Counted from the first letter of the stretch, positions 3,012 through 60,484 are shown. The stretch: DNA of 64,000 nt from Candidatus Gastranaerophilaceae bacterium (GCA_045638625.1 JAZUBR010000020.1:9660-73659), one strand, 5' to 3'. Numbers and translations are program-made. Notes: generated by a model from the letters alone, not told the origin.

Positions 3012-3290
3012 GCAAAACTTTTCAAAAATACTGGGGTTTAGACCTATTTACGCATAAAAATCCACAAAAAGTATGATTTTAGTATTAACACACGAGATGC
3101 TAACGGACTGTCCTCTCTCCCACTACAACACGCTTCTTTATTAGGTTTTAACCCTATATATAAATTTTCAACACTCTTTATACCCAACTTTGTAAACTTT
3201 TGTTAAACTTTCTCTACATGCTGAAATCCGCAAGGTTTAAAAGACTTTATATTAATGTAAGCTTTAGTAAGATATTAGAAAGAGTAAGTT

Positions 3291-4825: not shown

Positions 4826-6295
4826 TTAAATTTCACCTACTGTTTCTATATCAGAATCGTGTCTTAATTCTTCAAATGCGATAACTCTTAAATTATTCAC
4901 AAACTCTGAGAAAATTAAAAACGTCATCTGTCGAATTTCAAAAGGAGCTAACAGAATAATCTCATCCAATTCTGCAGATTTTGCCAGTCTTTTCATCTTT
5001 CTAACAAGCTTTAATACAGACTCACTATCAACCTTTACAACGCCTTCTCCTTCGCCACAGATTGAGCTCTCATAGAAGTTTTCTATCGTCTTCATTGAGA
5101 GTTCTATAACCTTTAGAGAATCTTTCCCTGCAAACAAATCTTTAGTTATTTGTTTACTCAAGGATAAGCGGATTTTTTCTATTAATTGGTCTTTTGATTC
5201 TTCGGAAGAAAAATCATTTATTTTTTCAAAAATATAAACAATATCCTTAACAGAAACTCTTTCTTTTATCAAAGAAGACAGAATGTACTTTATCTCTGCT
5301 GCAGAGATATAATCAGGATAAATATTATTAATTAAAAACGAGTTCTTTTCCTGCACAACTTCTAGATATTTATTGACAGAATTATAGTCTAGAATTTCTT
5401 CAACATTTTTTATAGAAACAAACTCTAATATCCTCCCGATATACTCTACAGGAGTCAATTTATTAACCCAGTAATCCTTGGCAATATCTTCATCAATCCA
5501 AATTACAGGCTCGTCAGTAATATAGTCCTTTGAAAGAATATCTGTTTTATGTTTTTTATAGGAATCAAAGTCCTTCTTAAACACACATACTTTATTAGGG
5601 AAAACATAATCCTTTACAAGCTCTATCCCATGAAGATTTATGCTAAACTCATTAGCCTCTAAATCCTCTTCATTTGAAAATACAACATTAGGAATTACAT
5701 ACCCTAATGAATCTGCAAGATTCTGTCTAACCTTAACGGTCTCTGCTAAAAGATTATCATCAGTATCCTGAATAACTGTCTCTATAAGTTCTTCTGATAA
5801 GTGGATAACAAACTTATCTTGACTTAGGTTAGAATACATATTATCAGGAGATATTTCCTGAATCAAAGACGCTTTTAATGAATCCAAACGCAATATTTCA
5901 TCAGAAAGTTGCTTATTAAGCAAGTCCTTATCTTTCAATGTAAAAGCATCATTATCTAATTGATATTTTATCTTTGAAATTATCTCTTTTTGCTCTTTTA
6001 TCTTAACTTGCAAATCTTTACAAGTTGAATAAGGTGACAAAGTAGAAGAAAACATCTTTTCCATTGTATTCTTGAAGCTCTTAATCTTTATCACATCATC
6101 AAAGTCTTGGGAAGGTTCTTCTTCTTTCTGACGCATAAAAATACAGTCAAAATAAATCCCGTCTTTTCGCTCAACCTCATGCATTCCGTACAAATCCCAT
6201 CCAGAATTTGACATTTCATTAAGCAAATCCTCTAAACCCTGCTTATCATTAACAATAGCAGACTTTATCACATACTGCATTTTCTGTTTAAACAT
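4826..6295 (-). CDS. Soluble FlhA/SctV (FHIPEP) cytoplasmic-domain homolog with an unrelated N-terminal domain and no transmembrane region
   Basis: The C-terminal ~350 aa match FlhA C-domain blocks. [45 protein letters not shown] matches [46 protein letters not shown] matches [50 protein letters not shown] matches PVLLVSPALRRPLRRLLERFLPDLPVLSYNEI. The N-terminal ~60 aa ([11 protein letters not shown]...) are DUF4177-like, followed by a coiled coil. Confidence 0.7.
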   Translation of the reverse strand: [489 protein letters not shown]

Positions 6296-33850: not shown

Positions 33851-36800
33851 TTAATCTCCAAAAATTACAAAAGGTATATCATGTTCTAACGCATAGCGCC
33901 TCAAAAATTCAGTTCTTTCTGATACAGATTTGGCAGGAGCATTACCAAAACTGTGATGTTCATTAGAATTAATTGTAGTTCTACTTAAGAATTCTATAGG
34001 ATTTTCAATCCGTTCGGTATAGTCTATACTATATGCAAAAACTGCCATTGGTGGTTGTGGGTTAGAGCCATACATCTCATTATATTCTCTATTACCCTTT
34101 CTAACATTTGAGTTTATGGTAGCTAGTGCTTTAATAATAGCTTCTCTTATTTCTACTGGATATATCTCAGAAAAAGATTTATTTTTATTTTCTCCTACAA
34201 ACCGAACATATTGTTCATCATCCATGCCAGTAGCTTCTTTAATTAAGTTTGATACATAAACACGCTCCGATTCTCTTTCGCCGCCAAAAATATAATTTGA
34301 TTTAAATTCTTCAATATTCTTACGACGACCCGAGCCAGAATCTGTGTTACCGCCACCATGGATATAGGTTGTATCGAAATTTAGCAATACACCTTGTGGT
34401 CTAAAGAATCTATATTTGCTTTCTGGGCGTTCTGCGTAACTTACTGATAATAATGCATCATTATCAACTAATGAAAAGGCATCAAACTTTGTCAGTTGAT
34501 ATTCATAATCAAGTGCGTGAGCAAAAAATTTTATATTACCAGTGTCGACATCACATTCCTCCCCTGCCTCGTTGACACCTTTTGCACTAATACCGTGCGA
34601 ACAAGTACCCTTAGAAAATCCAATCAATTCCCAATCCTCTACTTCATTAAACTTTATTATTACCATACCATTTGAATCTACATAAACACCTTTTAAGTTA
34701 GTGGTTCCATCTGGTTTAATATCCATTATCGCTTGCTTAATTCTGCTCATTGTCGGAATTTGTGTCACAGGTAAAATAGGTTTTGATTTTTGCAATTCTT
34801 GTACATAATCTTTTATTCTTTGAGCATATACTTCTGCAGAATCCCCAAAGCTACGTCTTACTCCTTCTATAGTAATTCGATTACTACCATCCATTGTATC
34901 GCGAAAACTATCATCAGTTTTCACAGCTCTTAAATCAGCATTAGCAAACATTAATGCCATATCAAAAAGATTTTCGTGCTGTAGATCAAATGCTACGGAT
35001 TGTAAACGTTTAGTAAGCACCTCTTCATTTTTAGAAGTGTTTACATATTCTAGCCACTCATGATGTTTGATGAGCGTATATAACTTAAGTTCCTGCTCTC
35101 TTGGCAAATTAAATTTCTTCGCAATAAAGAAACTGTCAAAACTACTTTCATTAGCATGCGTTTTATCATCAGAACCTTCTCTTTTTGTCACATCATGTAA
35201 AAGAGAGGCTAATAACATAATTTTTTTATCATCATCATTTAATTTCTCAAATTTTGGATCTTGTGCTATTTTTTGCATTACTTTTAATGAATGTTGTAAA
35301 ACATCATAGCTATGGGTACGATGTTGTGGCTTTCCTAATTGAACTCTTAATTCTGGGAGCACATCAACTATTTCATTTAAAATGCGTTCCACTTCTGGGT
35401 TATTACACTTCACCTTGTTGTTTTCTGAAAACTTAATTACATCAGGACGAAGTAGTTCAACAACTTCTTTTGTTTTTAAATTAGTAATCTGTGCTAGTTT
35501 TTTACCATTGTTTAAGTTTACAGGATAGCCCGTAATTGTATAACCTGTAGGATTTTTCTTACTGTGATGTAATTCAAAGCCAAAATAGTCATATACTTTT
35601 TGACGTTCTTTAGAAGAGAGCTCTTTGGTTTTCTCTAAAACAAGCTTTATAAAATCATTTTTAGACATTTCTTGAGTTATGTTGAGATTTGCAAAATCAT
35701 TATCCGATAGTTTTGCAAGACAGGTCGCAGCCTCACTTACTGATTTGTTAAAGTTATTTACTTCATCTGGCTTTAAGGTATTTGTTTCAATACCAAGAGA
35801 ACGTACTATTAATGGTAATAAGGTACAGTATTCATCTTTATTAGTAGGAATTAATGGAAAAGCCTCTTTTATTCTATCCGTTGTTTTAAACAAGCCTTCA
35901 TTACATTTTACTAGACGTCGTAACAGTTCTTTTTTACCCGCTTGCGGAATTTCATTAATATTTTTAACATGATAAATGTCAACCATTTGACACGCTAATA
36001 AGAATTCTTCATTTGCAAGTTTCTTCACATTATCTTTACCCATCTTCTTAATGAGTTTTTTCGTATCTAAATAGTTTATACTATTGGAGTTGGCAATTAA
36101 AGTATTTAGCTTTTCTATTGGAATTTCCAATTTAGAGTATTCTTCACAAAGCTTTTCAGCAAATGAAATATTATCTTTTGTCGTTACCATGAGAATAGTC
36201 GCTATCTCTTCTGGGGGAAACGCCTTATCAGCATATAGTTTTTCAGCAAGCGCAAGATTATTTTCATTTGTTTCCCAAAGAATGCTTGAGATATGTTCTT
36301 TGGGAAATTCTTTGTCAGTACAAAGTTTTTTAGCAAACGAAAGATTAATTGAACCTGCTCCCCAAAGAATGCTTGAGATATGTTCTTTTGGGAAATCTTT
36401 GTCAGCACAAAGAGCTTCTGCTAGAGGTAATTTTTCTTTACTAACTCTGCGCAGGATATCCCTTATATATTCTTTGGGGAATTCTTTATCTGCACAAAGT
36501 GCTTCCGCTAGAGGTAATTTTTCTTTATTAACACTGTATAAGATATCTCCTATATGTTCTTTTGGGAAATCCTTGTCTGTAAAAAGCCTTTCAGCAAATT
36601 CTAAATTGACATTATGTAACTCTACAACCAATGAAAATAAATCTTTACTCAAGAAATCTTTGTTTGAATAAAGAAGGAGGTTTTCAATAAAAGAAATTTC
36701 TTTTTCTTTGTACCCGCGGGTATCAATTATATGCAGAATCCGCATACATTCTCCTACATCAATTTCTTGGTGTATACAAAGCTTTTCTGCAATTTTATTA

Positions 36801-50424: not shown

Positions 50425-52518
50425 TTAATCTTCTTTTTTTGCTTTAACTGCAGCAATTGTTACTCCTATTGCAACAAGAGCAGCTGCACCTAATGTAATC
50501 ATGCTGGTTTTAGTTTTTGCAAACTGTGCAATCTTCTGCCATAGGTTCAACACTGGTTTAGGTGGAACAGGATCAATCTTACGCTTACGAATTTTATCAA
50601 TAAATCCTTTAAAGTCCTCTGGAACTTTCTGAACTTTTTCTTCGCCTATTAATCTTTGCATAAGTTTCTTTTTAGCGTCAGCAGAAGCTTTTGGAGTATC
50701 TGTAATTTTATCCATATATTGCTGCATGTACTCTTGAATTCTTGCCTTTTCAACTTTTTCTTTTATACAATTTAAGCTAAACAACATGCCAGCTAGAGCA
50801 TAAACAACTCTCTCTCTAACATCTATATCCATCTGTGAGTTTTCATCTAGAGCAATATCTTCAACATTTTCTATATTACTAGCTTTAATAATATTCTCTA
50901 TATACGTTTCAATTGAAGAAAATTCTGTTTTTAAAAGCTTGTTTTTATATTCTTCAGGATTTGAAAGAGCTTTGTACTCCTCGGCTATTTTTTCATCTTG
51001 AGGATAAGATATTTCGTACTCGGCGACTTGTTTTTGAATTTCTGGAGTAAGATTTTTTCTAAACTCTTCATTTACCTTGGCATAACTTGCGACCGCCATT
51101 TTTATAGCTTCGTCAAGTGTTTGAGGCTTATTGGAATCTTTCGGGTCAACATGGATAAATCTCAATCTGCCATCATAGTTACAATACTTGTTACGCTCAA
51201 GCATTTTTGAGATTTCAGATTCCTTATCAGCACGCTCTGCATCAGTTCTATTATCAACATAAATAGAAACTAACGGAATATTATCAAATTGTTTTGCTTC
51301 ATATTCATTTGCCGGTATAAATACCTTATCTGTGAAATTTACATAATTAGATACGGTTAGCATATTTACATCATTAGCACCATCACCAGCAACAACAACT
51401 AAATCATTTTTTCGATTTTCCACAATGTCACGGAGTTGCGCTCGAGTATCTAAAAACTTATCTATACCATAAGGTTTTATTTCTACCTCATAGCCAGCAT
51501 AAGAACCCTTATTTATTGATGAAACAACTCCAGTAATTTGAGAATCTTTAGCATAGTTATCTACAATCGGTAAGATAGAATCTTTGTATTTTTCGCTCAC
51601 TGCAACTCTTATACCCAATCCACCATCATCTGAGAATGCAATATAATCGGCATCTCTAGAAATACCTTTTTGTTCTAAAGCTGACTGTAGAGACAAACCT
51701 TCACCATACTCACGGCTTGAACGAGTTGTAGGGATATTTTCTAATATCATATGCTTACCAATTTCCTTATGGACTATATCAGAGAGAATACCCATATACC
51801 ACTCAAACATATCTTTTGTCTCGGGGGTAATTACAGTTTTATTATTTGCTTCCAACTCTTTTCTCACTTCTTGAGGAGTAAGGTTCCTTTTCGCTATCCC
51901 ATATAGCAAACTAGTTGCTTCATTCTCTTTTATACTTAAATGCTCCGCAATTGCCTGAGGAAGTTTTTGTTCCTTATCCTTAAACATAACATCAACATCA
52001 TAAGATTTACTTGTTATAAAATAATCCTTTATTTCTTGTACCATCTTATTAAAATCCCAACCTAGGCTCTCTTTATAAGCCTCTCTCTTTTCTTGATTCA
52101 CCTTTTCTTTTGTAAAAGCTGGTTTGGCACTCTTAAAAAATTCATCCTCATTTTTTACATTCAAATAGAACTCGTCTTGACCATTACAAGTTATCAATTT
52201 GTCAGGAAGCGGAACCCATAAATCTTGAGAACGAAGTTTATTTAAGAAGTAATTCGTCTCTGCAAGATTTCTGCCAGTTGTTATATTAAAATTAAACTTA
52301 CCCTCTTTTCCTCCACCTTTCAATTCCCAAAACAACTTCCAAGTATTGCTCATTGCAGTTTGAAATTCGTCTTTATTAACTTGTGGAGAATGATTACAAA
52401 CACTGTCATGATTGTATTTTTTAGGAATATATGTACCGTCGAAATCCGAATATAAATTTGTTATACCCGCACCAAAATTAGGCTTAGTCGTTTGTTGCAC
52501 AATTTTTTGAATTTTCAT
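50425..52518 (-). CDS. HAD-superfamily hydrolase-like protein (697 aa) with a C-terminal transmembrane anchor
   Basis: Motif I is LYSDFDGTY (DxDGT) and motif IV is VVVAGDGANDVNML. The C-terminus is ITLGAAALVAIGVTIAAVKAKKED. An AAAAGGAG RBS is present. Confidence 0.7.
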   Translation of the reverse strand: MKIQKIVQQTTKPNFGAGITNLYSDFDGTYIPKKYNHDSVCNHSPQVNKDEFQTAMSNTWKLFWELKGGGKEGKFNFNITTGRNLAETNYFLNKLRSQDLWVPLPDKLITCNGQDEFYLNVKNEDEFFKSAKPAFTKEKVNQEKREAYKESLGWDFNKMVQEIKDYFITSKSYDVDVMFKDKEQKLPQAIAEHLSIKENEATSLLYGIAKRNLTPQEVRKELEANNKTVITPETKDMFEWYMGILSDIVHKEIGKHMILENIPTTRSSREYGEGLSLQSALEQKGISRDADYIAFSDDGGLGIRVAVSEKYKDSILPIVDNYAKDSQITGVVSSINKGSYAGYEVEIKPYGIDKFLDTRAQLRDIVENRKNDLVVVAGDGANDVNMLTVSNYVNFTDKVFIPANEYEAKQFDNIPLVSIYVDNRTDAERADKESEISKMLERNKYCNYDGRLRFIHVDPKDSNKPQTLDEAIKMAVASYAKVNEEFRKNLTPEIQKQVAEYEISYPQDEKIAEEYKALSNPEEYKNKLLKTEFSSIETYIENIIKASNIENVEDIALDENSQMDIDVRERVVYALAGMLFSLNCIKEKVEKARIQEYMQQYMDKITDTPKASADAKKKLMQRLIGEEKVQKVPEDFKGFIDKIRKRKIDPVPPKPVLNLWQKIAQFAKTKTSMITLGAAALVAIGVTIAAVKAKKED

Positions 52519-52743
52519 ATTAACTCCTTTTAAACACTAAAAATAAAGACAAAAGCACCTGAGAAATCTCAGATGCTTTTGTTAGACAATTCTGCCGTGC
52601 CGTCCGTAATAGACTGACACTGTTCTGTAACACTAAATAACCACTGTCTCGTTTTTCTACTCAAAACAACCCCTTGTTTCTTTACTGAATTGTAAAGTAA
52701 ATTATAGTTAAAGTCTACAATTTATTACTAAAATTTTACATTT

Positions 52744-52752
52744 TTGATATAA
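52744..52752 (+). promoter_or_regulatory. Extended -10 promoter element (TGaTATAAT) positioned to start rnpB transcription
   Basis: The sequence ttttGaTATAATaaacgaGAATAAAG places the predicted transcription start 6-7 nt downstream, coinciding with the P1 5' strand of RNase P RNA. Confidence 0.4.
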
Positions 52753-52758
52753 TAAACG

Positions 52759-53114
52759 AGAATAAAGTAGCCGGATAATCGCGCTTTAAACTAGTTTTAC
52801 AGTGAGGAAAGTCCGTGCATTCAAGGACAACCCGCCGGAGAAACTCCGGACAGCGTGAGCTGGTGGATAGTGCCACAGAAATGAAAACTGCCAATGGGAA
52901 TTCATTCCACAGGCGAGGGTGCAACGGTGAGTTAAGAGCTTCACCAGTGAAATTGAGAAATTTCAGCTAGGTAAACCCCGGGTGAATGCAAGATTGAATG
53001 GAAGGTTATCAAGGTGTCCGCCAACTTCCGAAAAATCGCTAGAGATTGTAAGTAATTACAATACCAGACAGATGATTATCTAGAAACAGAACACGGCTTA
53101 TGAGCTGCTTTATT
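52759..53114 (+). ncRNA. rnpB: RNase P RNA (M1 RNA)
   Basis: Three universally conserved blocks are present. The P4 5' strand is GUGAGGAAAGUCCGUGC. The P11-12 junction is AGGGUGCAACGGUGAGUUAAGAGCUUCACC, matching AGGGUGAAAnGGUGcGGUAAGAGCgCACC. The P4 3' strand is ACAGAACACGGCUUAU. P1 pairs GAAUAAAGUAGC with GCUGCUUUAUUC. A T-tract follows. The minus ORF 52736..52924 is spurious. Confidence 0.8.
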
Positions 53115-53142
53115 CTTTTTTCACACACAACAGGCTTATTAG

Positions 53143-54057
53143 ATGAGAATTTCTCCAGTTACAACTAGTATCTCAAATACACATTTTACTAAGAATAATC
53201 GTATTTTGCGACAACAGTACTTAGAAAGATTTGAGCACAAAACTCCTGAAATCAAGACTTTGGATGGGATAAAAAAACTCTACAACGGTATTCAAAAATT
53301 TTTCTTATTTGCAGGAGCTTATTCAATAGGTTTATTAGGTTATGAGCTTCGAACAAATAATTATGAAGCTCTTGATAAACAAGGCGTCATAAATTACATT
53401 GAACCTCAAAAAAACAAATTTGATTCCAGACGAGATGTTTATAACTATGCAATTAACCAAGCAACGAATGCTCTTAACAGCAATCAACCCTACGAACATG
53501 CCGTTTACATAAACAATGCAAACAACGAAGTTTTAGCAGAATTTGAAGGTAACAAAGACAAAGTCTATACCGCTATCAGCTTTATCGATAAACTAAAACT
53601 AAAATTATATGGAGAGGGCGCTACTTTAATCCACGGACACCCTAGCTTTGAAAACGGTGTTACACCTCCAATAAGTCATCCAGATTTTGAAACATTATGT
53701 AACAACGATTTTTTGACTGAGATTGTAGCTGTAGACAAAAAAGGAAAAGTCTCTTTATTAAGAAAAACCCCTTTCTTCTCTCCTCCAAATGAAACCATCA
53801 AAGAACTAGTATCAACAGAACTTGTTGTTATACTTTTTGACTCCTTCGAAGAGACTCAGCCCGATAAATTTGTAGAAATTATTTCCGCATACCAAAAAGA
53901 AACAGACAGTTTAAAGACTCTAGAATTAAAAAAAGAATTGGATTATTATGTTTTAGGACAAGACTCTACAGAATATACGAACAGAGCAATCCACGAATAT
54001 TGGCAAACAACAGCTAAAAAATTAGGTTTAGAATACTACACTAATTTTTCTAAGTAG
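53143..54057 (+). CDS. Hypothetical protein (304 aa)
   Basis: The long ORF shows no recognised family. It contains LIHGHPSFENGVTPPISHPDFE. The start context is weak. Confidence 0.5.
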   Translation: MRISPVTTSISNTHFTKNNRILRQQYLERFEHKTPEIKTLDGIKKLYNGIQKFFLFAGAYSIGLLGYELRTNNYEALDKQGVINYIEPQKNKFDSRRDVYNYAINQATNALNSNQPYEHAVYINNANNEVLAEFEGNKDKVYTAISFIDKLKLKLYGEGATLIHGHPSFENGVTPPISHPDFETLCNNDFLTEIVAVDKKGKVSLLRKTPFFSPPNETIKELVSTELVVILFDSFEETQPDKFVEIISAYQKETDSLKTLELKKELDYYVLGQDSTEYTNRAIHEYWQTTAKKLGLEYYTNFSK

Positions 54058-54071
54058 AAAAGGATGTTTTT

Positions 54072-55103
54072 ATGAAAGGACTTGTAAGAAACGGTAGTAA
54101 CATAGAACTAAGGGATTTGCCTACACCTAAACTAATTAATCCCGATGATGCTATTGTAAAAGTAACCTATTCATCTGTGTGTACAAGCGACTTTCATATA
54201 AAGAATGGTTTCGTCCCCAGAGCAAATAACAATATTGTACTCGGACACGAGTTCGTTGGTGAAATCGTTGAATTAGGTAGTAATATTAAAAACCTTACGA
54301 TTGGGCAAAGAGTTGCTGCAAATTGTATCACCTTCTGCGGGGAATGTTTTTACTGCAAGAAAGGTTTTATCAACAACTGCGAAAATGGCGGTTGGGAGCT
54401 TGGGTGTCGTATAGATGGATGTCAGGCTGAATACATTAGAGTGCCTTTTGCCGAAACAGGATTAACTCCAATACCAGAAAATGTGCCTTACACTCAGGCT
54501 CTTTTCACAGGGGATATCCTTTCTAGTGGGTACTTTGGAGTTGAATTATGCGACATAAAACCAAATGAAAATGTGGCAATTATAGGCTGTGGCCCCGTAG
54601 GACTTTGTGCAATGAAATGCGCACGCTTATTTACTAAAGGAAAAATCTTTGCAATCGATATAGATTCTAACAGATTAGAAATTGCACAAACAAACAAGCT
54701 TGCAGATATCTTCATAAACCCTCTAAAAGAAAACATAAACGAAATTATAAAAGCATATACAGACAACCATGGAGCAGACAACGTAATCGAGGCCGCAGGT
54801 ACAAAAGAATCTTTTAAAACAGCATGGGAAATTGCAAGAGCAAATGCTACACTAGCAATTGTTGCAATGTACGAAGAGAATCTAGAATTGCCACTTCCTA
54901 ATATGTACGGTAAAAACTTGATTTTCAAAACAGGTGGCGTAGATGCTATCCATTGCAAAAAACTTCTACAACTAATATCAAATAATGAACTCTCAACCGA
55001 TTTCCTTATTTCTAAAACATTCAAACTAGACAATATACTTGAAGCTTATGAATACTTCGAAAACAAAACTAATAATTGTCTAAAGGTGGCAATTCAGCAT
55101 TAA
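54072..55103 (+). CDS. Zinc-dependent alcohol dehydrogenase family protein (MDR; threonine/sorbitol dehydrogenase-like)
   Basis: The catalytic-Zn signature is GHEFVGEIVELG. The structural-Zn Cys cluster is CGECFYCKKGFINNC. The Rossmann motif is IIGCGPVGL. An AAGGATG RBS is present. Confidence 0.8.
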   Translation: MKGLVRNGSNIELRDLPTPKLINPDDAIVKVTYSSVCTSDFHIKNGFVPRANNNIVLGHEFVGEIVELGSNIKNLTIGQRVAANCITFCGECFYCKKGFINNCENGGWELGCRIDGCQAEYIRVPFAETGLTPIPENVPYTQALFTGDILSSGYFGVELCDIKPNENVAIIGCGPVGLCAMKCARLFTKGKIFAIDIDSNRLEIAQTNKLADIFINPLKENINEIIKAYTDNHGADNVIEAAGTKESFKTAWEIARANATLAIVAMYEENLELPLPNMYGKNLIFKTGGVDAIHCKKLLQLISNNELSTDFLISKTFKLDNILEAYEYFENKTNNCLKVAIQH

Positions 55104-56907
55104 GAATCTCTTCTGGAGTAACTATCTTTTTCATCTTCAATTCTGTATTTACTATTCGTCCTTTTTTAACGTCACCATTAAGCAACTGATCTAAATAATA
55201 TGGCATTTTGGTCGCAATCTCGCTTGTTGAAGCATATTCTGACATCGGCATATAAGAAACTTGGGCTCCTATTAATATAGGTTTGCCCTCATCAGAAGAA
55301 CGAATAATCCCTCCATCATAAGAATCTATATTCATAACTGATACTCGTTCAGGAGATTCAACTTTTATTGAGTAATATTCAAAGTCAACATAACGAGGAG
55401 ATTTAACTCTAGTAACAGAAATTTTTGTTCCATCTTTAGTCATCACAAAGAATTTTCCACCAAAGATTCTGCCATCTTTTAGTCGTTCATGCGAAAATCT
55501 AGAATCTCTTAACTCAACAGGTTGCATAAATATCTCCTGAATTTGAGTTACTGCATCTTGTAATATTTGCTTGGTAAATATTTTAGGAACCTGTTTTACC
55601 TTATTTGCCTGAACTTGTTTTCTTTCTAAAGCTTTTTTCTTAGCCAATTCTTTTTCTTTGCGCCTGTTTGCGGCTCTAGCTGCCTTTTCAGCTTTTATTT
55701 GAGCTTGCTTGTCTAATCTTAACCTTAATCGTTCATTCTTTGCATTTAACTTTGCCAAAGCTATTTTCTCTTTTTGAAGCTTTTTAGCTTTCTCCCTTGC
55801 TAGTTTAGCAGCTTCTTTTTCGGCAGCATATTCTTGTAAATCCTTGATTTCATATTTACCATTTACAACCACAAATTTATGGGTTTTAATATATTCGTCA
55901 ATAAATCCAGAAAAATTACTAAAACTATCAGAGATAAAGTCTAACTCTTTTTTTATATCAAGAGTACTTAATTCGTTAGAAGTAAGTTTAGTCAAGTTAG
56001 AAGGTCTCATATCATGGGGCTTACTCATATCCTTTAAAGTTGCAAAAGTACCATCTTCAAAAGCTATAACAGCCTTTTTCAAAACACCTTTTGTGTCAAA
56101 AGCTTGTATCCTAAATATTCTATCGTCATCTGCGGAATGCAATGGAGTATAAACAGCAAAGGCTCCATTGTTATCATAGAAGCGTAAACCTTTTTCTTCT
56201 ATTATCTGTCCTTCTTGGTAGTATGCCTGCTTTATCTGAAAAGCTGATTTTCTATAATCCAATTTTGTTTTTAACTCTTCAAAACCTTTTAATAAAGCAT
56301 CAATCTCTTGTTTAAATTCATCACTTGGAAAAGGTACCTGCTTTTTTCGTTCGATTTCGATAAGTTTGGCAATCTGAGACTTTGGAGTATCAGGAGTTAT
56401 AAAACTCTTTATGTTCATATACTCCTCTGAATAATCCAAGAGAAGTTTGAATTCATTTTTCATTGAAGCTGCAAATTGAGAAATTTTATCTTTTATATCA
56501 ACTCCACCTTTTAAAAGTTCCGCATCATACTGTTCTGTAGATTCTACAACAAGTTCATCGGAACCTTTTCCACAACTACAAGATACTAGAAAGTTTTTAT
56601 CTGTCCCCTCATAAACCCTCATTGTTAATGGGGCTTTTGCTGAAAACTTATACAAATGGAATTGGGCATTAACAGGGTTATCGCCTTCAAAAAGATTAAA
56701 TCCCTTAGTTCTATCTCCCGTATAAAGCCCTGGAAATAAACTTCTAAACTTAGTCCGCGTTGGTCCATTTTGTTTAGCAAGTTTAAGAGTCAAAGAGTCA
56801 TAAGCACCTTCTAACTCTTGAATTTCAGCAAGCCTCTGAGGAGGTAATTTCAAAACAAATCTACCTTTGAAAGTTTGATCATAAAATTTTAATGGAGTAA
56901 TTTGCAT
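55069..56907 (-). CDS. Hypothetical 612-aa protein with a central K/A/E-rich coiled coil, probably co-transcribed with the upstream kinase-like gene
   Basis: No TM segment or signal peptide is present. A ~90-aa coiled coil reads AAEKEAAKLAREKAKKLQKEKIALAKLNAKNERLRLRLDKQAQIKAEKAARAANRRKEKELAKKKALERKQ. It lies 71 nt downstream of the kinase-like gene on the same strand. Its 3' end overlaps the convergent ADH gene by ~35 nt. Confidence 0.6.
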   Translation of the reverse strand: MQITPLKFYDQTFKGRFVLKLPPQRLAEIQELEGAYDSLTLKLAKQNGPTRTKFRSLFPGLYTGDRTKGFNLFEGDNPVNAQFHLYKFSAKAPLTMRVYEGTDKNFLVSCSCGKGSDELVVESTEQYDAELLKGGVDIKDKISQFAASMKNEFKLLLDYSEEYMNIKSFITPDTPKSQIAKLIEIERKKQVPFPSDEFKQEIDALLKGFEELKTKLDYRKSAFQIKQAYYQEGQIIEEKGLRFYDNNGAFAVYTPLHSADDDRIFRIQAFDTKGVLKKAVIAFEDGTFATLKDMSKPHDMRPSNLTKLTSNELSTLDIKKELDFISDSFSNFSGFIDEYIKTHKFVVVNGKYEIKDLQEYAAEKEAAKLAREKAKKLQKEKIALAKLNAKNERLRLRLDKQAQIKAEKAARAANRRKEKELAKKKALERKQVQANKVKQVPKIFTKQILQDAVTQIQEIFMQPVELRDSRFSHERLKDGRIFGGKFFVMTKDGTKISVTRVKSPRYVDFEYYSIKVESPERVSVMNIDSYDGGIIRSSDEGKPILIGAQVSYMPMSEYASTSEIATKMPYYLDQLLNGDVKKGRIVNTELKMKKIVTPEEILNAELPPLDNY

Positions 56908-56978
56908 TTACGCACCTCACTCCATTAAAACTTCAAACAAAATATTTTTTGCTATATTTGTAATATATTTTTACATTA

Positions 56979-58100
56979 TTATTTAACTCCAACTGAACAA
57001 ATGATATCCATTTCACGGAATGTTCTATAATATAAATCACCTAGTCCAAATCTGCTATCTACATCTTTTATAAAATCCAGATATTTTTGTTTATTAGTAT
57101 CCAAGCCTTGTTTTTCAGCAGCATCCAAACATTTTTTATTTATTGTTGAAACAGCCAATCTAAACTCTTCTTGAGAGCTTTCTAACAATTTAGGATAAAA
57201 ATCTCCAAAGTTTTTAAAATCAACCAACGGTGCCACTAAATCACACAACGAGTTGCGCCCTTTATCTTTATCGTATTTATAAAAGTCAATGATAGATAGT
57301 TCCTTAGTCTCATAATCAACCATAATATTATTTGGATTGAAACTGTCCATCTTATAACCTTTATCATCTAATAATTTTAATTTTTTTGCATAGTCATCAA
57401 ACGACTCTTGTGGGAATTGAGAAATCTCCTTAACTTCTTTTAAGAAAGATTTTACTTCTTTAGGAGAATACGGAACATTATCTCGTCCCCTTGTAGCCCA
57501 CTCTGCAATTGCGTGAGGAGAACCCGTTACACGTCTCAATATCGCAATACCATCTCCAAACCCAGCAATAGCTTGTCCCATATTCATTTCTGCTAAATCA
57601 TCAGGCAAAATTCTCATTTCTTGGTTATGAAACATATGCTCAGGAATATTCTTCCTAATTTTTACGACCCAATTTTCTAACTCCGGATCAGAAAATTTAT
57701 AGACGGTAGATGAAGCTCCACTCCCCAAGAAATTTTCATTTTTACGATTTTTTAAAATATCGTCAGAAGATTTAATCCCCAATTGTTCTAATTTCTTGGT
57801 CAATTTTTCAATACTACTATCACGAGCTATACGAGCAGCTTCTTTCATCTTTTCAAGGTCATCGACCGTATATAAAACCCCAGGTGGATATTCTTTAATA
57901 GCATTTTTATTCATGCCACGTTTTACACCTATAGCATACCCGACTCCAGCTGCTCCAACTACAGCCAAGCACGCCAATGCTGTAGAAAGTTTCTTAGAAT
58001 CATTTTTACTCTCTGCCTTTGATTGACTTACTATATTTTTCTTTTTAGCCTGCATCCCAAACTGAACAGCAGCAGGCATTGCTGTAATACCATTAATCAT
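56979..58100 (-). CDS. Membrane-anchored protein-kinase-fold protein (eukaryotic-like kinase / APH-like)
   Basis: The start was set at MINGITAM because AGGGAA lies upstream and the longer track ORF would begin inside the upstream terminator. A TM helix LACLAVVGAAGVGYAIGV is followed by a Gly-rich loop FLGSGASSTVYKF, a VAIK-like lysine in WVVKIRK, a catalytic-loop-like DSFNPNNIMVD and a DFG-like IIDFY. Confidence 0.6.
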   Translation of the reverse strand: MINGITAMPAAVQFGMQAKKKNIVSQSKAESKNDSKKLSTALACLAVVGAAGVGYAIGVKRGMNKNAIKEYPPGVLYTVDDLEKMKEAARIARDSSIEKLTKKLEQLGIKSSDDILKNRKNENFLGSGASSTVYKFSDPELENWVVKIRKNIPEHMFHNQEMRILPDDLAEMNMGQAIAGFGDGIAILRRVTGSPHAIAEWATRGRDNVPYSPKEVKSFLKEVKEISQFPQESFDDYAKKLKLLDDKGYKMDSFNPNNIMVDYETKELSIIDFYKYDKDKGRNSLCDLVAPLVDFKNFGDFYPKLLESSQEEFRLAVSTINKKCLDAAEKQGLDTNKQKYLDFIKDVDSRFGLGDLYYRTFREMDIICSVGVK

Positions 58101-58172
58101 TATAATATTTCCCTTTATAATAAACACCTTCCCTAAGTTTATATCAAATAAAAATAAAAGCAAATAAAAAAA

Positions 58173-58196
58173 TCCCTGACATATTTGTCAGGGGTA
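58173..58196 (-). terminator. Rho-independent terminator after the phosphohexomutase gene
   Basis: On the minus strand, CCCTGACA-aata-TGTCAGGG is followed by ATTTTTTTATTTGCTTTT. Confidence 0.7.
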
Positions 58197-58219: not shown

Positions 58220-60484
58220 TTATAACTTGTATACTGGAATCTCAAAAGGTTCGTTATTTGCATCTTTTTCTACAAACCTTAAATAATATTCCATAGCTTT
58301 TTCTTTGGAATTTTCGTAAAACTCTTCCGTAATATATTCGCTATGAAGAGCTGTACGTTCACCAGAATAATTTCCAAGAATCTTGGCATATTCTGAAATT
58401 CCTTCCAAATCCGCACCGCCTGAATAAGCCTTTGTCTTAGCATCAGTTCCTGAAGGACGAATTTCAATATACTTGTCATCAAATTCCAAATATGTACCGT
58501 CACCAACAAACTTAACTGATTTTAAATTATCAAACTTTAATGCTGGGAATGCATCATTCAAGACAGCTTTGATATTTTCAAGGGTCATTACCCCTTCTCT
58601 CAAGCCCATCGCCATTGAAAGATAGAACAAATCGTTCTTTGTACGTTGTTTTTCACCTTCCAATTTTGCTATTTTAAGCTTTTCAATATCCGGCTCAGAT
58701 TCATTATAATACGAAATGTCTTCTCTTACATCATATTTTGAAGTTATGTTACAAGATTCAAAAATGCTTTGTAGATACTGAGATAATGTCTCATTATTTT
58801 CTTCAAGCATTGCCGCCAACGAAGATGCAACAATAATAGCTTCAGTTGCACTCTTTTCTCTCATTGCAATAGCTTTTCTTCCAGTCAAAGATTCAATTAA
58901 ATCTTCTGCACCCATAATCATACCGCCAGATTCTTCACCCGCAAATACTAGTCTTGGTTGCACTCCTAGATTAATTTTGTTACCAAATACATCTTCTACA
59001 ATAACTTCTGAATCAGGATTGTTCTTCAATTGAAGCTCTACCTTTTTCATAATATTTGCAATTTCTTTGAATCCAACCGGAACATTAACAACTTTTATAC
59101 CATTGTGATTTGCCCACTCATCCCAAGAAAGAGCAGATGCTGTAGTCTTAATCATAAATCTTGGATGAGAAGAGAACTTGCCAGAATGTTTTAATTGTCT
59201 TGTTCTATATTCCATCAACATCAAGAACGCTTGGTTTGCAGTATACACTGTCAAAACTCGATCCTCATCTAATTTAATATAAGAAATACCAAACTCATCT
59301 AGTGTCGGAATATTTCCTGATACTTCTACCTGACAAACTGTCAATCTATCGTGGTCTGGGTCTGTAATTAAAACAACAGTTCCTAAAGGATAATTCTTTA
59401 ACAATTCTGGATAATGCAATGTTTCAATTACTGGGAAATACTTCTCACCATTCGGTCTTGTTGCCAAAACAGTAGCATCAACCGAATAATCATAGAATAC
59501 ATTATTCCCTTTTGAATCGTGATCGTATTTTCCAATTGAATGGAAGAAAGGATCCTCTTCAGTATTATTCCACGCAAAGCTTTCTTCTACCTCTAAAGCT
59601 TCTAAAACTCGACTTAAAGTTCTATAAGCACAACCACCAACACACTCAACGAGAATTTTATTCTTCATTTTTTTCAACGCAGATAAATCTTGTGCGACAC
59701 CTGATTTTAAATATTCTACATACAAATCAATACCATCATTCAACTTGCCCATTATAAATTCATCAATCAACGGGTCAGAAGCAGAGGCAATTTTAATTTC
59801 ATAAGAGCCATTCTTTTCAGTTTCTTCAAAGATTTGTTCAATCTTTTCAACAAACTCTAATGATTCATCTGGTAAATATTGGCTACCTTGGTTATTTAAG
59901 TCTTTAGTTGCAGTTTTTACAGAAATACCATGGCTTGAAGTTATATACTCACCCCCTGCCAAGTCTAATTTAAAAGCCAAGAATGATGCCAACCAGATTG
60001 GTATTGACACTCTTTCTGGAGTAGTAAGTGTTTTGATACCCAACGCCGCTTGTATTCTAACAATAGCATCTAAGTACAAATCAGAATTATATCTAACCTC
60101 ACTACCTGCAAGCTTTAATATTTCCTTGTTTGGATATTTTTCTCTTAAAACTAAGCCTTTTGCTAAAGTTGCTAACACAATGCCAACTAAGTTAATAGGA
60201 AATCTTGTATCTTGAGGAAACAAAATATTCTGAGGACCTCTGATACCTGCAGTTGACACTTTTGCTTCTTTTGCATACCCTGCAAACCAATCCTTTAAAT
60301 TTAAACCTTCTGGGTTTGTTGTTTCATCATAAGGATACAAATGCTCTTTCTTTAAAGTAAATACAAACTCATTTTTATTAGTAAAATTCATTAAATTCAA
60401 AGTTTTTATATAATCAGGAGTTTTATCAAAGACATTTTTAAACAACTGATTTTCAAGTTCACAAGATGCGTTTCTTATCATCAT
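58220..60484 (-). CDS. Alpha-D-phosphohexomutase family protein (PGM/PMM-like), 754 aa
   Basis: TAGIRG is the substrate loop. TSSHGIS resembles the TASHNP active-site Ser. ITDPDHDRL is the metal-binding DxDxDR. GEESGGMIMG and RPSGTDAKTKAY are also present. Confidence 0.65.
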   Translation of the reverse strand: MMIRNASCELENQLFKNVFDKTPDYIKTLNLMNFTNKNEFVFTLKKEHLYPYDETTNPEGLNLKDWFAGYAKEAKVSTAGIRGPQNILFPQDTRFPINLVGIVLATLAKGLVLREKYPNKEILKLAGSEVRYNSDLYLDAIVRIQAALGIKTLTTPERVSIPIWLASFLAFKLDLAGGEYITSSHGISVKTATKDLNNQGSQYLPDESLEFVEKIEQIFEETEKNGSYEIKIASASDPLIDEFIMGKLNDGIDLYVEYLKSGVAQDLSALKKMKNKILVECVGGCAYRTLSRVLEALEVEESFAWNNTEEDPFFHSIGKYDHDSKGNNVFYDYSVDATVLATRPNGEKYFPVIETLHYPELLKNYPLGTVVLITDPDHDRLTVCQVEVSGNIPTLDEFGISYIKLDEDRVLTVYTANQAFLMLMEYRTRQLKHSGKFSSHPRFMIKTTASALSWDEWANHNGIKVVNVPVGFKEIANIMKKVELQLKNNPDSEVIVEDVFGNKINLGVQPRLVFAGEESGGMIMGAEDLIESLTGRKAIAMREKSATEAIIVASSLAAMLEENNETLSQYLQSIFESCNITSKYDVREDISYYNESEPDIEKLKIAKLEGEKQRTKNDLFYLSMAMGLREGVMTLENIKAVLNDAFPALKFDNLKSVKFVGDGTYLEFDDKYIEIRPSGTDAKTKAYSGGADLEGISEYAKILGNYSGERTALHSEYITEEFYENSKEKAMEYYLRFVEKDANNEPFEIPVYKL

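Follow-up and report, generated by a model that had tools for sequence, protein, structure and literature searches.

A kinase-like protein of an unnamed PKL family, predicted to be membrane-tethered, and its orphan neighbour in a Gastranaerophilaceae genome

Proteins of the PKL (protein-kinase-like) superfamily (Pfam clan CL0016, or the protein kinase fold of ECOD) are recognized by a bilobal fold, with a beta-rich N-lobe and a helical C-lobe, and by a set of nucleotide- and metal-binding residues, namely a glycine-rich loop, a beta-3 lysine, a catalytic Asp-x4-Asn and a DFG-type aspartate. Next to Hanks-type kinases such as CK2alpha and PknB stand minimal atypical kinases (KdkA/WaaP/YrbL, RIO, Bud32, NleH/OspG) and the APH/choline-kinase-like small-molecule kinases of the ELK group (APH(2''), MTR kinase, homoserine kinase type II, NahK, maltokinase). 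APH enzymes carry an H-x-D-x4-N catalytic loop and, after the metal-binding aspartate, an I-D...(Y/F)-D-(L/I)-A motif. The Gastranaerophilales are common, uncultured gut relatives of cyanobacteria with a largely unannotated proteome, and a literature search returned nothing relevant tying them, or the Melainabacteria, to kinase-like proteins. The present analysis deals with the gene of a 373-aa kinase-like protein and the gene of a 612-aa protein directly downstream of it, in a 64,000-nucleotide stretch of a Candidatus Gastranaerophilaceae bacterium (GCA_045638625.1, JAZUBR010000020.1:9660-73659), hereafter the window. An original prediction, made by a model from the sequence, had described the two as an inserted module composed of a membrane-anchored kinase-fold protein and a coiled-coil protein, for example a signalling or effector pair. 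Since new bacterial PKL families are described steadily (bioRxiv 10.64898/2026.09.18.752743), the finding is an incremental one.

The four kinase motifs singled out in that prediction are all present in the translation where they had been placed (Table 1), and so is the single N-terminal transmembrane (TM) helix, which is borne out both by hydropathy and by a helix at residues 37-57 of an AlphaFold2 model. This model was built from nine homologues and its core has pLDDT values of 84-97. Three helices (residues 79-117) precede a two-lobed domain, in which the helix between beta-3 and beta-4 is short (residues 154-157 only) and the next helix follows Asp272 after just ~12 residues. Because the PDB matches found by Foldseek at E<=1e-3 are all kinases, of various families (RIOK1, a CMGC kinase, CK2, PCTAIRE1 and GSK3), with OspG, Bud32 and Rio2 next at E values of 1-2e-3, the kinase-like fold is certain and no known kinase family is clearly nearest. 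At the sequence level, a profile of 57 family members reaches CK2alpha among the PDB sequences at E=1.6e-4, through the glycine-rich loop with beta-3 and the catalytic loop with the DFG region; the single sequence gives just E ~0.4, again to CK2. The bilobal fold and the nucleotide- and metal-binding residues of the superfamily are both found, and the protein is a PKL superfamily member by fold and active site. The fold proposed originally is supported, the catalytic residues being kept across a large family.

How large this family is depends strongly on the search. A word-indexed protein search returned just nine clusters for the kinase-like query; when 1.84 billion representatives were searched exhaustively with a profile, 519 passed E<=1e-3, of which 316 also passed E<=1e-10. 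Counted as clusters at 50% identity, this PKL family has at least 519; it is unnamed and evolves fast. The 57-sequence alignment used here samples diverse members, with ~20-45% identity to the query. In the glycine-rich loop, G128 and Y/F134 are kept in all 57 sequences, G126 in 53 and V133 in 50; in the catalytic loop the counts are 56 for D252, 56 for N255, 55 for P256, 54 for N257, 57 for N258 and 53 for D262. Downstream, D272 is found in 57/57, D287 in 50/57 and D294 in 53/57, and N173, G175 and Q176 are also at least 90% conserved. Lys147 does not vary among the 9 closest homologues and is kept at 90% or more in an alignment of 22 sequences; its column in the larger alignment, where slips are apparent, holds K in 34 sequences and R in 6. 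In these alignments, the conservation is such as a functional active site would show. All genome matches to the family (18/18) are Gastranaerophilales or gut metagenome-assembled genomes, those with an organism name all being gut Gastranaerophilales (Melainabacteria), and its metagenome loci are mostly of 27-42% GC. A distant member (P0171, L035:5925-7463, profile E=2.4e-24) lies on a 51% GC contig (GCA_030841365.1); it has a Gly/Ala-rich hydrophobic N-terminal extension of 250 residues, and its neighbours encode a Sel1-repeat protein, a transglutaminase/EDR1-like peptidase, SbmA/BacA, rhomboid and FtsH. These neighbours suggest an intracellular or symbiotic bacterium, so the family would not be strictly confined to Gastranaerophilales.

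None of the curated models claims this family. For the query, the sole Pfam signal is APH (PF01636, E=0.033, 14.4 bits against a gathering threshold of 23.2), which spans residues 254-275, from the catalytic loop to DFG (275-296 on a longer, TTG-started reading of the open reading frame, ORF); NCBIfam gives nothing, Pkinase (PF00069) has no match at E<=1, and for Kdo/WaaP/YrbL (PF06293, PF10707, NF002475) the query is without match and the curated thresholds are not reached. No member of the 57 attains a Pfam or NCBIfam threshold either, and their weak votes, all for PKL families, are dispersed over YrbL (5, best E=0.0033), Pkinase (4, best E=0.0017), Kdo (2) and APH (1) in Pfam, and over KdkA (6, best E=0.0013) and NleH (1) in NCBIfam. 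Nor is the family one of Hanks-type Ser/Thr kinases, whose signature of HRD, an activation segment closed by APE and the alpha-F aspartate is not reproduced: K-M-D stands where H-R-D would be, the next helix begins ~12 residues after D272, APE is missing and the model has no canonical alpha-C helix. Compared with CK2alpha or PknB, the query lacks HRD, the activation loop and APE, and no alpha-C glutamate was identified in it. Bacterial receptor kinases have the opposite domain order; in the query the TM helix leads, and an extracellular sensor is absent. Around the active site D252-x4-N257 and D272-x14-D287-L-V are conserved, which by eye may resemble the APH motifs, with lysine replacing histidine; K-M-D stands where APH has H-x-D, and the family-specific N-P-N-N catalytic loop, the N-terminal TM anchor, the three-helix linker and the absence of a canonical alpha-C helix in the model all set the query apart from the APH/choline-kinase-like enzymes. 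Relative to the minimal atypical kinases, among them the type III secretion effectors NleH/OspG, ~85 additional residues (285-368) form a helical C-terminal region, and nothing points to secretion. The family sits between these minimal kinases and the APH/choline-kinase-like small-molecule kinases. What distinguishes it from Pkinase, APH, Kdo/WaaP/KdkA and YrbL alike is the D-x-x-N-P-N-N catalytic loop, an N-x-G-Q motif where the canonical alpha-C region would be, the helical C-terminal extension and, in the query's subfamily, an N-terminal TM anchor without extracellular domain.

This anchor is not a general property. A TM-like N-terminal segment is found in just 15/137 near-full-length family members, so that membrane tethering is a trait of the query's subfamily and most members would be soluble. 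Within the TM region L42 and C44 are invariant among the 9 closest homologues. Attachment as a lipoprotein through the invariant Cys44 was considered and rejected, the cysteine opening the hydrophobic stretch rather than following it and the preceding positions being unlike a lipobox.

Whether the downstream gene belongs functionally to the kinase-like gene was approached through co-occurrence, in gene tables and by tblastn, within flanks of 6-10 kb. The original prediction was right that the genes are on the same strand and 71 nt apart, as the ORF list and the spacer confirm. Since this gap has its own ribosome-binding site (RBS) and no terminator, co-transcription is likely; the terminator scan found no terminator-like site in the spacer, which folds no better than shuffled sequence (z=+0.98). 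Kinase and 612-family genes are adjacent only in the lineage of the window and in one relative, L005. No 612-family gene occurs in the flanks of ~35 other kinase loci, among them 17 retrieved by scanning metagenomes with the 22-sequence alignment, and 23 distinct contexts of the kinase subfamily represent at least seven neighbourhoods with no recurrent partner. Conversely, in locus L032, which lacks the kinase, the 612-family gene adjoins ADH and a gene homologous to the 304-aa one of the window, and has its own 114-nt upstream region followed by a divergent Na/Ca exchanger gene. L005 keeps the window's gene order MT-PGM-kinase-612-ADH, with a kinase-612 gap of 61 nt; as this whole block is syntenic, the adjacency there carries no special weight. 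Judged by the refuting condition that the original prediction had itself named, and within the flanks examined, the ~35 loci without a 612-family gene and L032 without a kinase refute the proposed signalling or effector pair. The adjacency is a local, lineage-specific arrangement and not a conserved two-component module, and adjacency alone does not justify annotating the 612-aa gene as a partner of the kinase or as an effector.

Comparison with L005 also revealed very unequal rates of evolution. Identity amounts to 97% for MT, 92% for PGM and 78% for ADH, but 43-45% for the kinase-like protein and 50-51% for the 612-aa protein; the nonsynonymous divergence (dN) is 0.04-0.05 for MT and PGM and 0.15 for ADH, and reaches 0.51 in the kinase and 0.41 in the 612-aa protein, the last two being about ten-fold above MT and PGM. 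Nucleotide similarity (82%) covers the PGM gene and the intergenic region, breaks off at 58106, a little upstream of the start codon of the kinase gene (58100-58098), and returns at 55578, where the C-terminal domain of the 612-aa protein is encoded. Between PGM and kinase, the intergenic region is 80% identical to its L005 counterpart, and the coding sequence after it just 55%. Synonymous sites are saturated in all genes (synonymous divergence, dS, of 1.28 for PGM), so that omega, the dN/dS ratio, cannot be estimated. Allelic exchange or positive selection, suggested by the drop at the kinase start, is possible and was set aside, since weak constraint explains the pattern and omega is not estimable. 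Judging from these comparisons, the kinase-like and 612-aa proteins are weakly constrained and lineage-specific.

The reading that we favour, with a probability of roughly 0.6, is a membrane-tethered, active, ATP-dependent phosphotransferase of an unnamed PKL family, with a co-transcribed orphan neighbour that is not a conserved partner. The protein would be bitopic, with an N-terminal tail of ~38 residues, one TM helix, three linker helices and a PKL domain of ~250 residues, which would be placed in the cytoplasm. The residues for ATP binding and phosphotransfer are intact (G126xG128, Lys147, D252-x4-N257-N258 and, for metal binding, Asp272). On the cytoplasmic side of the membrane, this domain would most likely transfer phosphate, in an ATP- and Mg-dependent manner, to a hydroxyl acceptor, which could be either a protein or a small molecule or glycolipid. 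The downstream 612-aa gene, probably co-transcribed, is a lineage-restricted orphan.

Several observations weigh against this reading. No conserved glutamate partner for Lys147 is found in the 57-sequence alignment, where D167 is present in 33/57, and the canonical long alpha-C helix is not seen in the model. A close homologue, P0009, has asparagine at both the D252 and D272 positions, so some family members may be inactive. Positive charges on both sides of the TM helix leave the topology ambiguous, and should the kinase-like domain be periplasmic, an ATP-dependent role would be unlikely. As regards the neighbour, the co-occurrence survey bears on flanks and not on whole genomes, the word-index search may have missed remote 612-family members, and the fact that the genes are still adjacent and co-oriented at 43-50% identity between the window and L005 fits a functional link in this clade.

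Some of these points feed directly into other explanations. A dedicated pair, in which the membrane-tethered kinase phosphorylates the 612-aa basic-helix protein, or is regulated or scaffolded by it, within a signalling or effector unit, would account for the shared strand, the 71-nt gap without terminator and the second gene's own RBS. It would also fit the adjacency retained in L005 with a 61-nt gap in spite of the divergence, and the similarly high rates of both genes, as interacting pairs can show. It is unlikely all the same, given the ~35 kinase loci where no 612-family gene flanks the kinase and the neighbours vary, the independent upstream region, divergent exchanger and missing kinase of L032, and the wholesale synteny of the L005 block. 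A pseudokinase or scaffold, having kept the fold and perhaps nucleotide binding and lost transferase activity, looks very unlikely. The absence of a canonical alpha-C helix and of an identifiable Lys-Glu salt bridge, the very fast evolution (dN 0.51 against 0.05 for PGM in the same relative) and the asparagines of P0009 speak for it, and according to recent surveys bacterial PKL folds have been co-opted as non-catalytic scaffolds (bioRxiv 10.64898/2026.09.18.752743); the invariance of G128, N258 and D272 and the retention of D252 in 56/57 members, at ~20-45% identity, are however what purifying selection on catalysis would produce.

More room has to be left for a kinase of small molecules or envelope glycans, acting at the inner membrane not on proteins but on a sugar, a lipopolysaccharide (LPS) core or glycolipid or an antibiotic-like acceptor, and functionally tied to the adjacent PGM-like mutase and HAD-IIB-like phosphatases. 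We hold it possible, if doubtful: the architecture after D272 is ELK-like, the domain is found fused to a HAD-IIB-like phosphatase, which is homologous to the 697-aa protein of the window, and in another member to a Zeta-toxin/AAA_33 kinase, and PGM-like and glycosyltransferase genes lie in loose proximity in a few genomes. An LPS-core biosynthesis neighbourhood is not conserved across the 23 contexts, where glycosyltransferase neighbours are found in 3 loci only. Broader and more speculative, and in our view improbable, is the idea of a large undescribed PKL clade expanded in gut Melainabacteria, as part of a lineage-specific, fast-evolving set of enzymes acting on the envelope, the host or phages; kinase and 612-aa protein would then be a co-evolving interaction module in one sub-lineage and not a housekeeping enzyme with an accidental neighbour. 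This idea arises from the HAD, Zeta and possible nucleotidyltransferase fusions, from a loose N-terminal leader pattern and from the L035 homologue. Finally, a horizontally acquired island, whether phage-derived, a defence system or a toxin module, can hardly be entertained. Both genes are lineage-restricted and fast-evolving behind a strong terminator, and the kinase-family members of L006 and L011 lie near restriction-modification, integrase and KAP-NTPase genes. Against this, the GC content (0.33-0.34) and the GC content at third codon positions (0.23-0.25) of both genes equal those of neighbouring genes; no integrase, transposase or repeat boundaries exist in the window flanks (TsaB/TsaE, MT, PGM, ADH, RNase P RNA); 50,697 phage records and the IMG/VR viral contigs contain no relatives of either protein; and PADLOC/PHROG scans of both proteins and their neighbours returned nothing above threshold for either gene. 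Together with the L005 synteny, kept despite saturated synonymous sites, these results contradict the inserted module of the original prediction, and the kinase-612 pair is not a recent insertion.

The membrane-tethered phosphotransferase thus remains the preferred description of the upstream gene. The work defines an unmodelled PKL family of hundreds of clusters with a conserved active site and a membrane-tethered subfamily, from which annotators gain a family to model and biochemists a tractable target; the HAD and Zeta fusions and the weak KdkA and APH affinities point to testable substrates, e.g. sugars and envelope glycolipids.

The 612-aa protein is far more restricted, its family turning up in three lineages only. 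Searched with its charged helix removed from the query, it has only three non-self clusters among 5.8 billion proteins, and a 612-family hidden Markov model, run on every ORF of the loci fetched, uncovered no distant relatives among the genes next to the kinase. It matches no Pfam or NCBIfam model, with noise-level signals only in PADLOC and PHROG. The AlphaFold2 model is of moderate quality (pLDDT 68, pTM 0.40) and consists of three helix-plus-beta-meander modules and one continuous helix, residues 357-425. Foldseek found nothing in the PDB at E<=1e-3; KICSTOR, the top match, is not a credible fold relative (E=3e-3, TM 0.14). An internal triplication is suggested by the model; in hhalign, modules 1 and 2 matched weakly (E=0.006, probability 6%), and module 3 gave no signal. 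For the segment described as a coiled coil, this label is not supported: hydrophobic residues make up 0.22 of a/d positions in the best register and 0.17 elsewhere, with no heptad periodicity. From its composition and the model, it would be better called a strongly basic single helix, which could suit polyanion binding. The C-terminal domain is the best conserved part, with 58% amino acid identity to L005 compared with 38-51% for the rest of the protein, and invariant columns are dense there in the 612-family alignment (A3).

Table 1. Features of the kinase-612 locus (window coordinates)
Feature	Position	Strand	Residues	Basis or remark
Intrinsic-terminator hairpin CCCTGACA-AATA-TGTCAGGG with T-run	58174..58193	-		8 pairs, 5 G-C (terminator scan)
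Leader and probable promoter region of kinase-like gene	58101..58173	-		Sequence; promoter putative
TM helix LSTALACLAVVGAAGVGYAIGV	57924..57986	-	~39-59	Kyte-Doolittle 19-residue mean maximum 2.07
Protein-kinase-like domain	56997..57746	-	~119-368	N-lobe beta-rich 119-189, C-lobe helical 201-368
Glycine-rich loop GSGASSTVY	57699..57725	-	126-134	Aligns to CK2 G-loop
Beta-3 strand VVKIRK with Lys147	57651..57668	-	145-150	Aligns to CK2 VVKILK lysine
Catalytic loop DSFNPNNIMVD	57315..57347	-	252-262	D252-x4-N257, then invariant N258
Metal-binding DFG-equivalent IIDFY, D272	57279..57293	-	270-274	Then N283, D287-L-V, D294
71-nt intergenic spacer with RBS GGAGTGAGGTG (56913-56923)	56908..56978	-		Sequence, terminator scan, folding
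612-aa orphan gene	55069..56907	-		ORF; no TM segment, known domain or structural match
Lys/Ala/Glu/Arg-rich basic helix	55597..55839	-	357-437	33% K+R, net charge +16
Best-conserved C-terminal domain of 612-aa protein	55072..55587	-	441-612	Beta-meander 471-528
35-nt 3'-end overlap of 612-aa ORF and convergent Zn-ADH gene (54072..55103, +)	55069..55103			ORF list

Both ORFs lie on the minus strand, the kinase-like one at 56979..58100 (373 aa from ATG, stop codon included in the coordinates). Relatives of both are present in other metagenomes, and they are therefore not chance ORFs. A TTG-started reading of the kinase-like ORF (56979..58163) would begin in the T-run of the terminator (58193..58174), and the warning that this N-terminus is too long was correct. 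The ATG at 58100 is preceded, 10 nt upstream, by an RBS-like AAAGGG (58111-58116), public assemblies call an identical 373-aa protein, and the N-termini of homologues (MINGI, MISNV, MINKI, i.e. MI(N/S)) agree with this form. Of the strong terminators said to flank the pair, the upstream hairpin exists: it ends the 754-aa PGM-like gene and marks the 5' boundary of the transcription unit. On the downstream side, 3' of the 612-aa ORF, nothing with a terminator-like fold was found, and the ORF instead overlaps the convergent Zn-ADH gene. Convergent 612-family/Zn-ADH overlaps also occur in L005 (41 nt, 6166-6206) and L032 (68 nt, 3127-3194); kept in three lineages, this arrangement implies that the ends of the two transcripts would be antisense to each other.

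Multidomain members of the kinase-like family occur at three other loci. In P0038 (647 aa, L034:128-2071) a HAD domain is fused N-terminal to the kinase-like domain. Over HAD motifs I and IV, BLASTP matches this HAD domain to the window's 697-aa HAD-IIB-like protein (50425..52518, minus strand, with a C-terminal TM helix), with E values of 6e-8 and 7e-7. Seen on a single 2.2-kb contig, the fusion is no more than a possible Rosetta stone joining the two families. P0143 (L036:101-1915) carries at its C-terminus a P-loop kinase domain of the Zeta_toxin/AAA_33 type (E=1e-15). The member at L043:5740-7911 occupies a 724-codon stop-to-stop frame (~700 aa from the first ATG), with a C-terminal extension of ~370 aa containing SVGRKLAIPGSDCDGLF, nucleotidyltransferase-like by eye and without Pfam or PDB match.

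Upstream of the kinase-like gene, the PGM-like gene (58220..60484, minus strand) encodes a phosphohexomutase-like protein of 754 aa, unusually long and divergent, with weak matches to PGM_PMM domains I-III and a GlmM score of 41 bits, far under the 439-bit cut-off. Its identity of 92% to the L005 counterpart and 71% to that of L016 indicates that it is strongly constrained; in three lineages a PGM-like gene is at most four genes away from the kinase-like one. On the other side, a 304-aa hypothetical protein (53143..54057, plus strand) has a TM-like N-terminal segment at ~53-70 and a motif, IHGHPSFENGVTPPISHPDF, resembling by eye the HxH...S..D signature of JAB/MPN (RadC-like) metalloproteases; it has no Pfam, NCBIfam or PDB sequence match, and the homologue beside ADH and the 612-family gene in L032 is 39% identical. 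A full-length bacterial RNase P RNA of class A (52763..53116, plus strand, 230 bits) lies between the HAD-like and 304-aa genes.

A loose N-terminal pattern, M-x-I-x-x-(I/V/L)...(P/N/T/S)-N-F-x-(G/A), recurs in several lineage-specific proteins of the window (50425..58100) and of L005-L031: kinase-family members, the 697-aa HAD-like, 304-aa, 612-aa and 151-aa proteins and a Metallophos protein of L008. Within the first 30 residues, '[PNTS]NF' is found in 16/423 ORFs, compared with ~1% in most control windows (about three-fold). As a sorting signal, 'M-x-I...NF-x-G' is not established, since orthologues are non-independent and AT-rich codon bias may contribute. Elsewhere in the window, a separate 1804-aa ORF occupies 33851..39265 (minus strand), and two tandem ORFs of ~990 aa (10090..13062 and 13278..16274, minus strand) have similar N-terminal regions, in which …IKKVFLENKE…/…IKTVFLESKE… is followed by …SVSSALF(I/V)ANxTMNA…; to judge by this likeness, they are probably paralogues.

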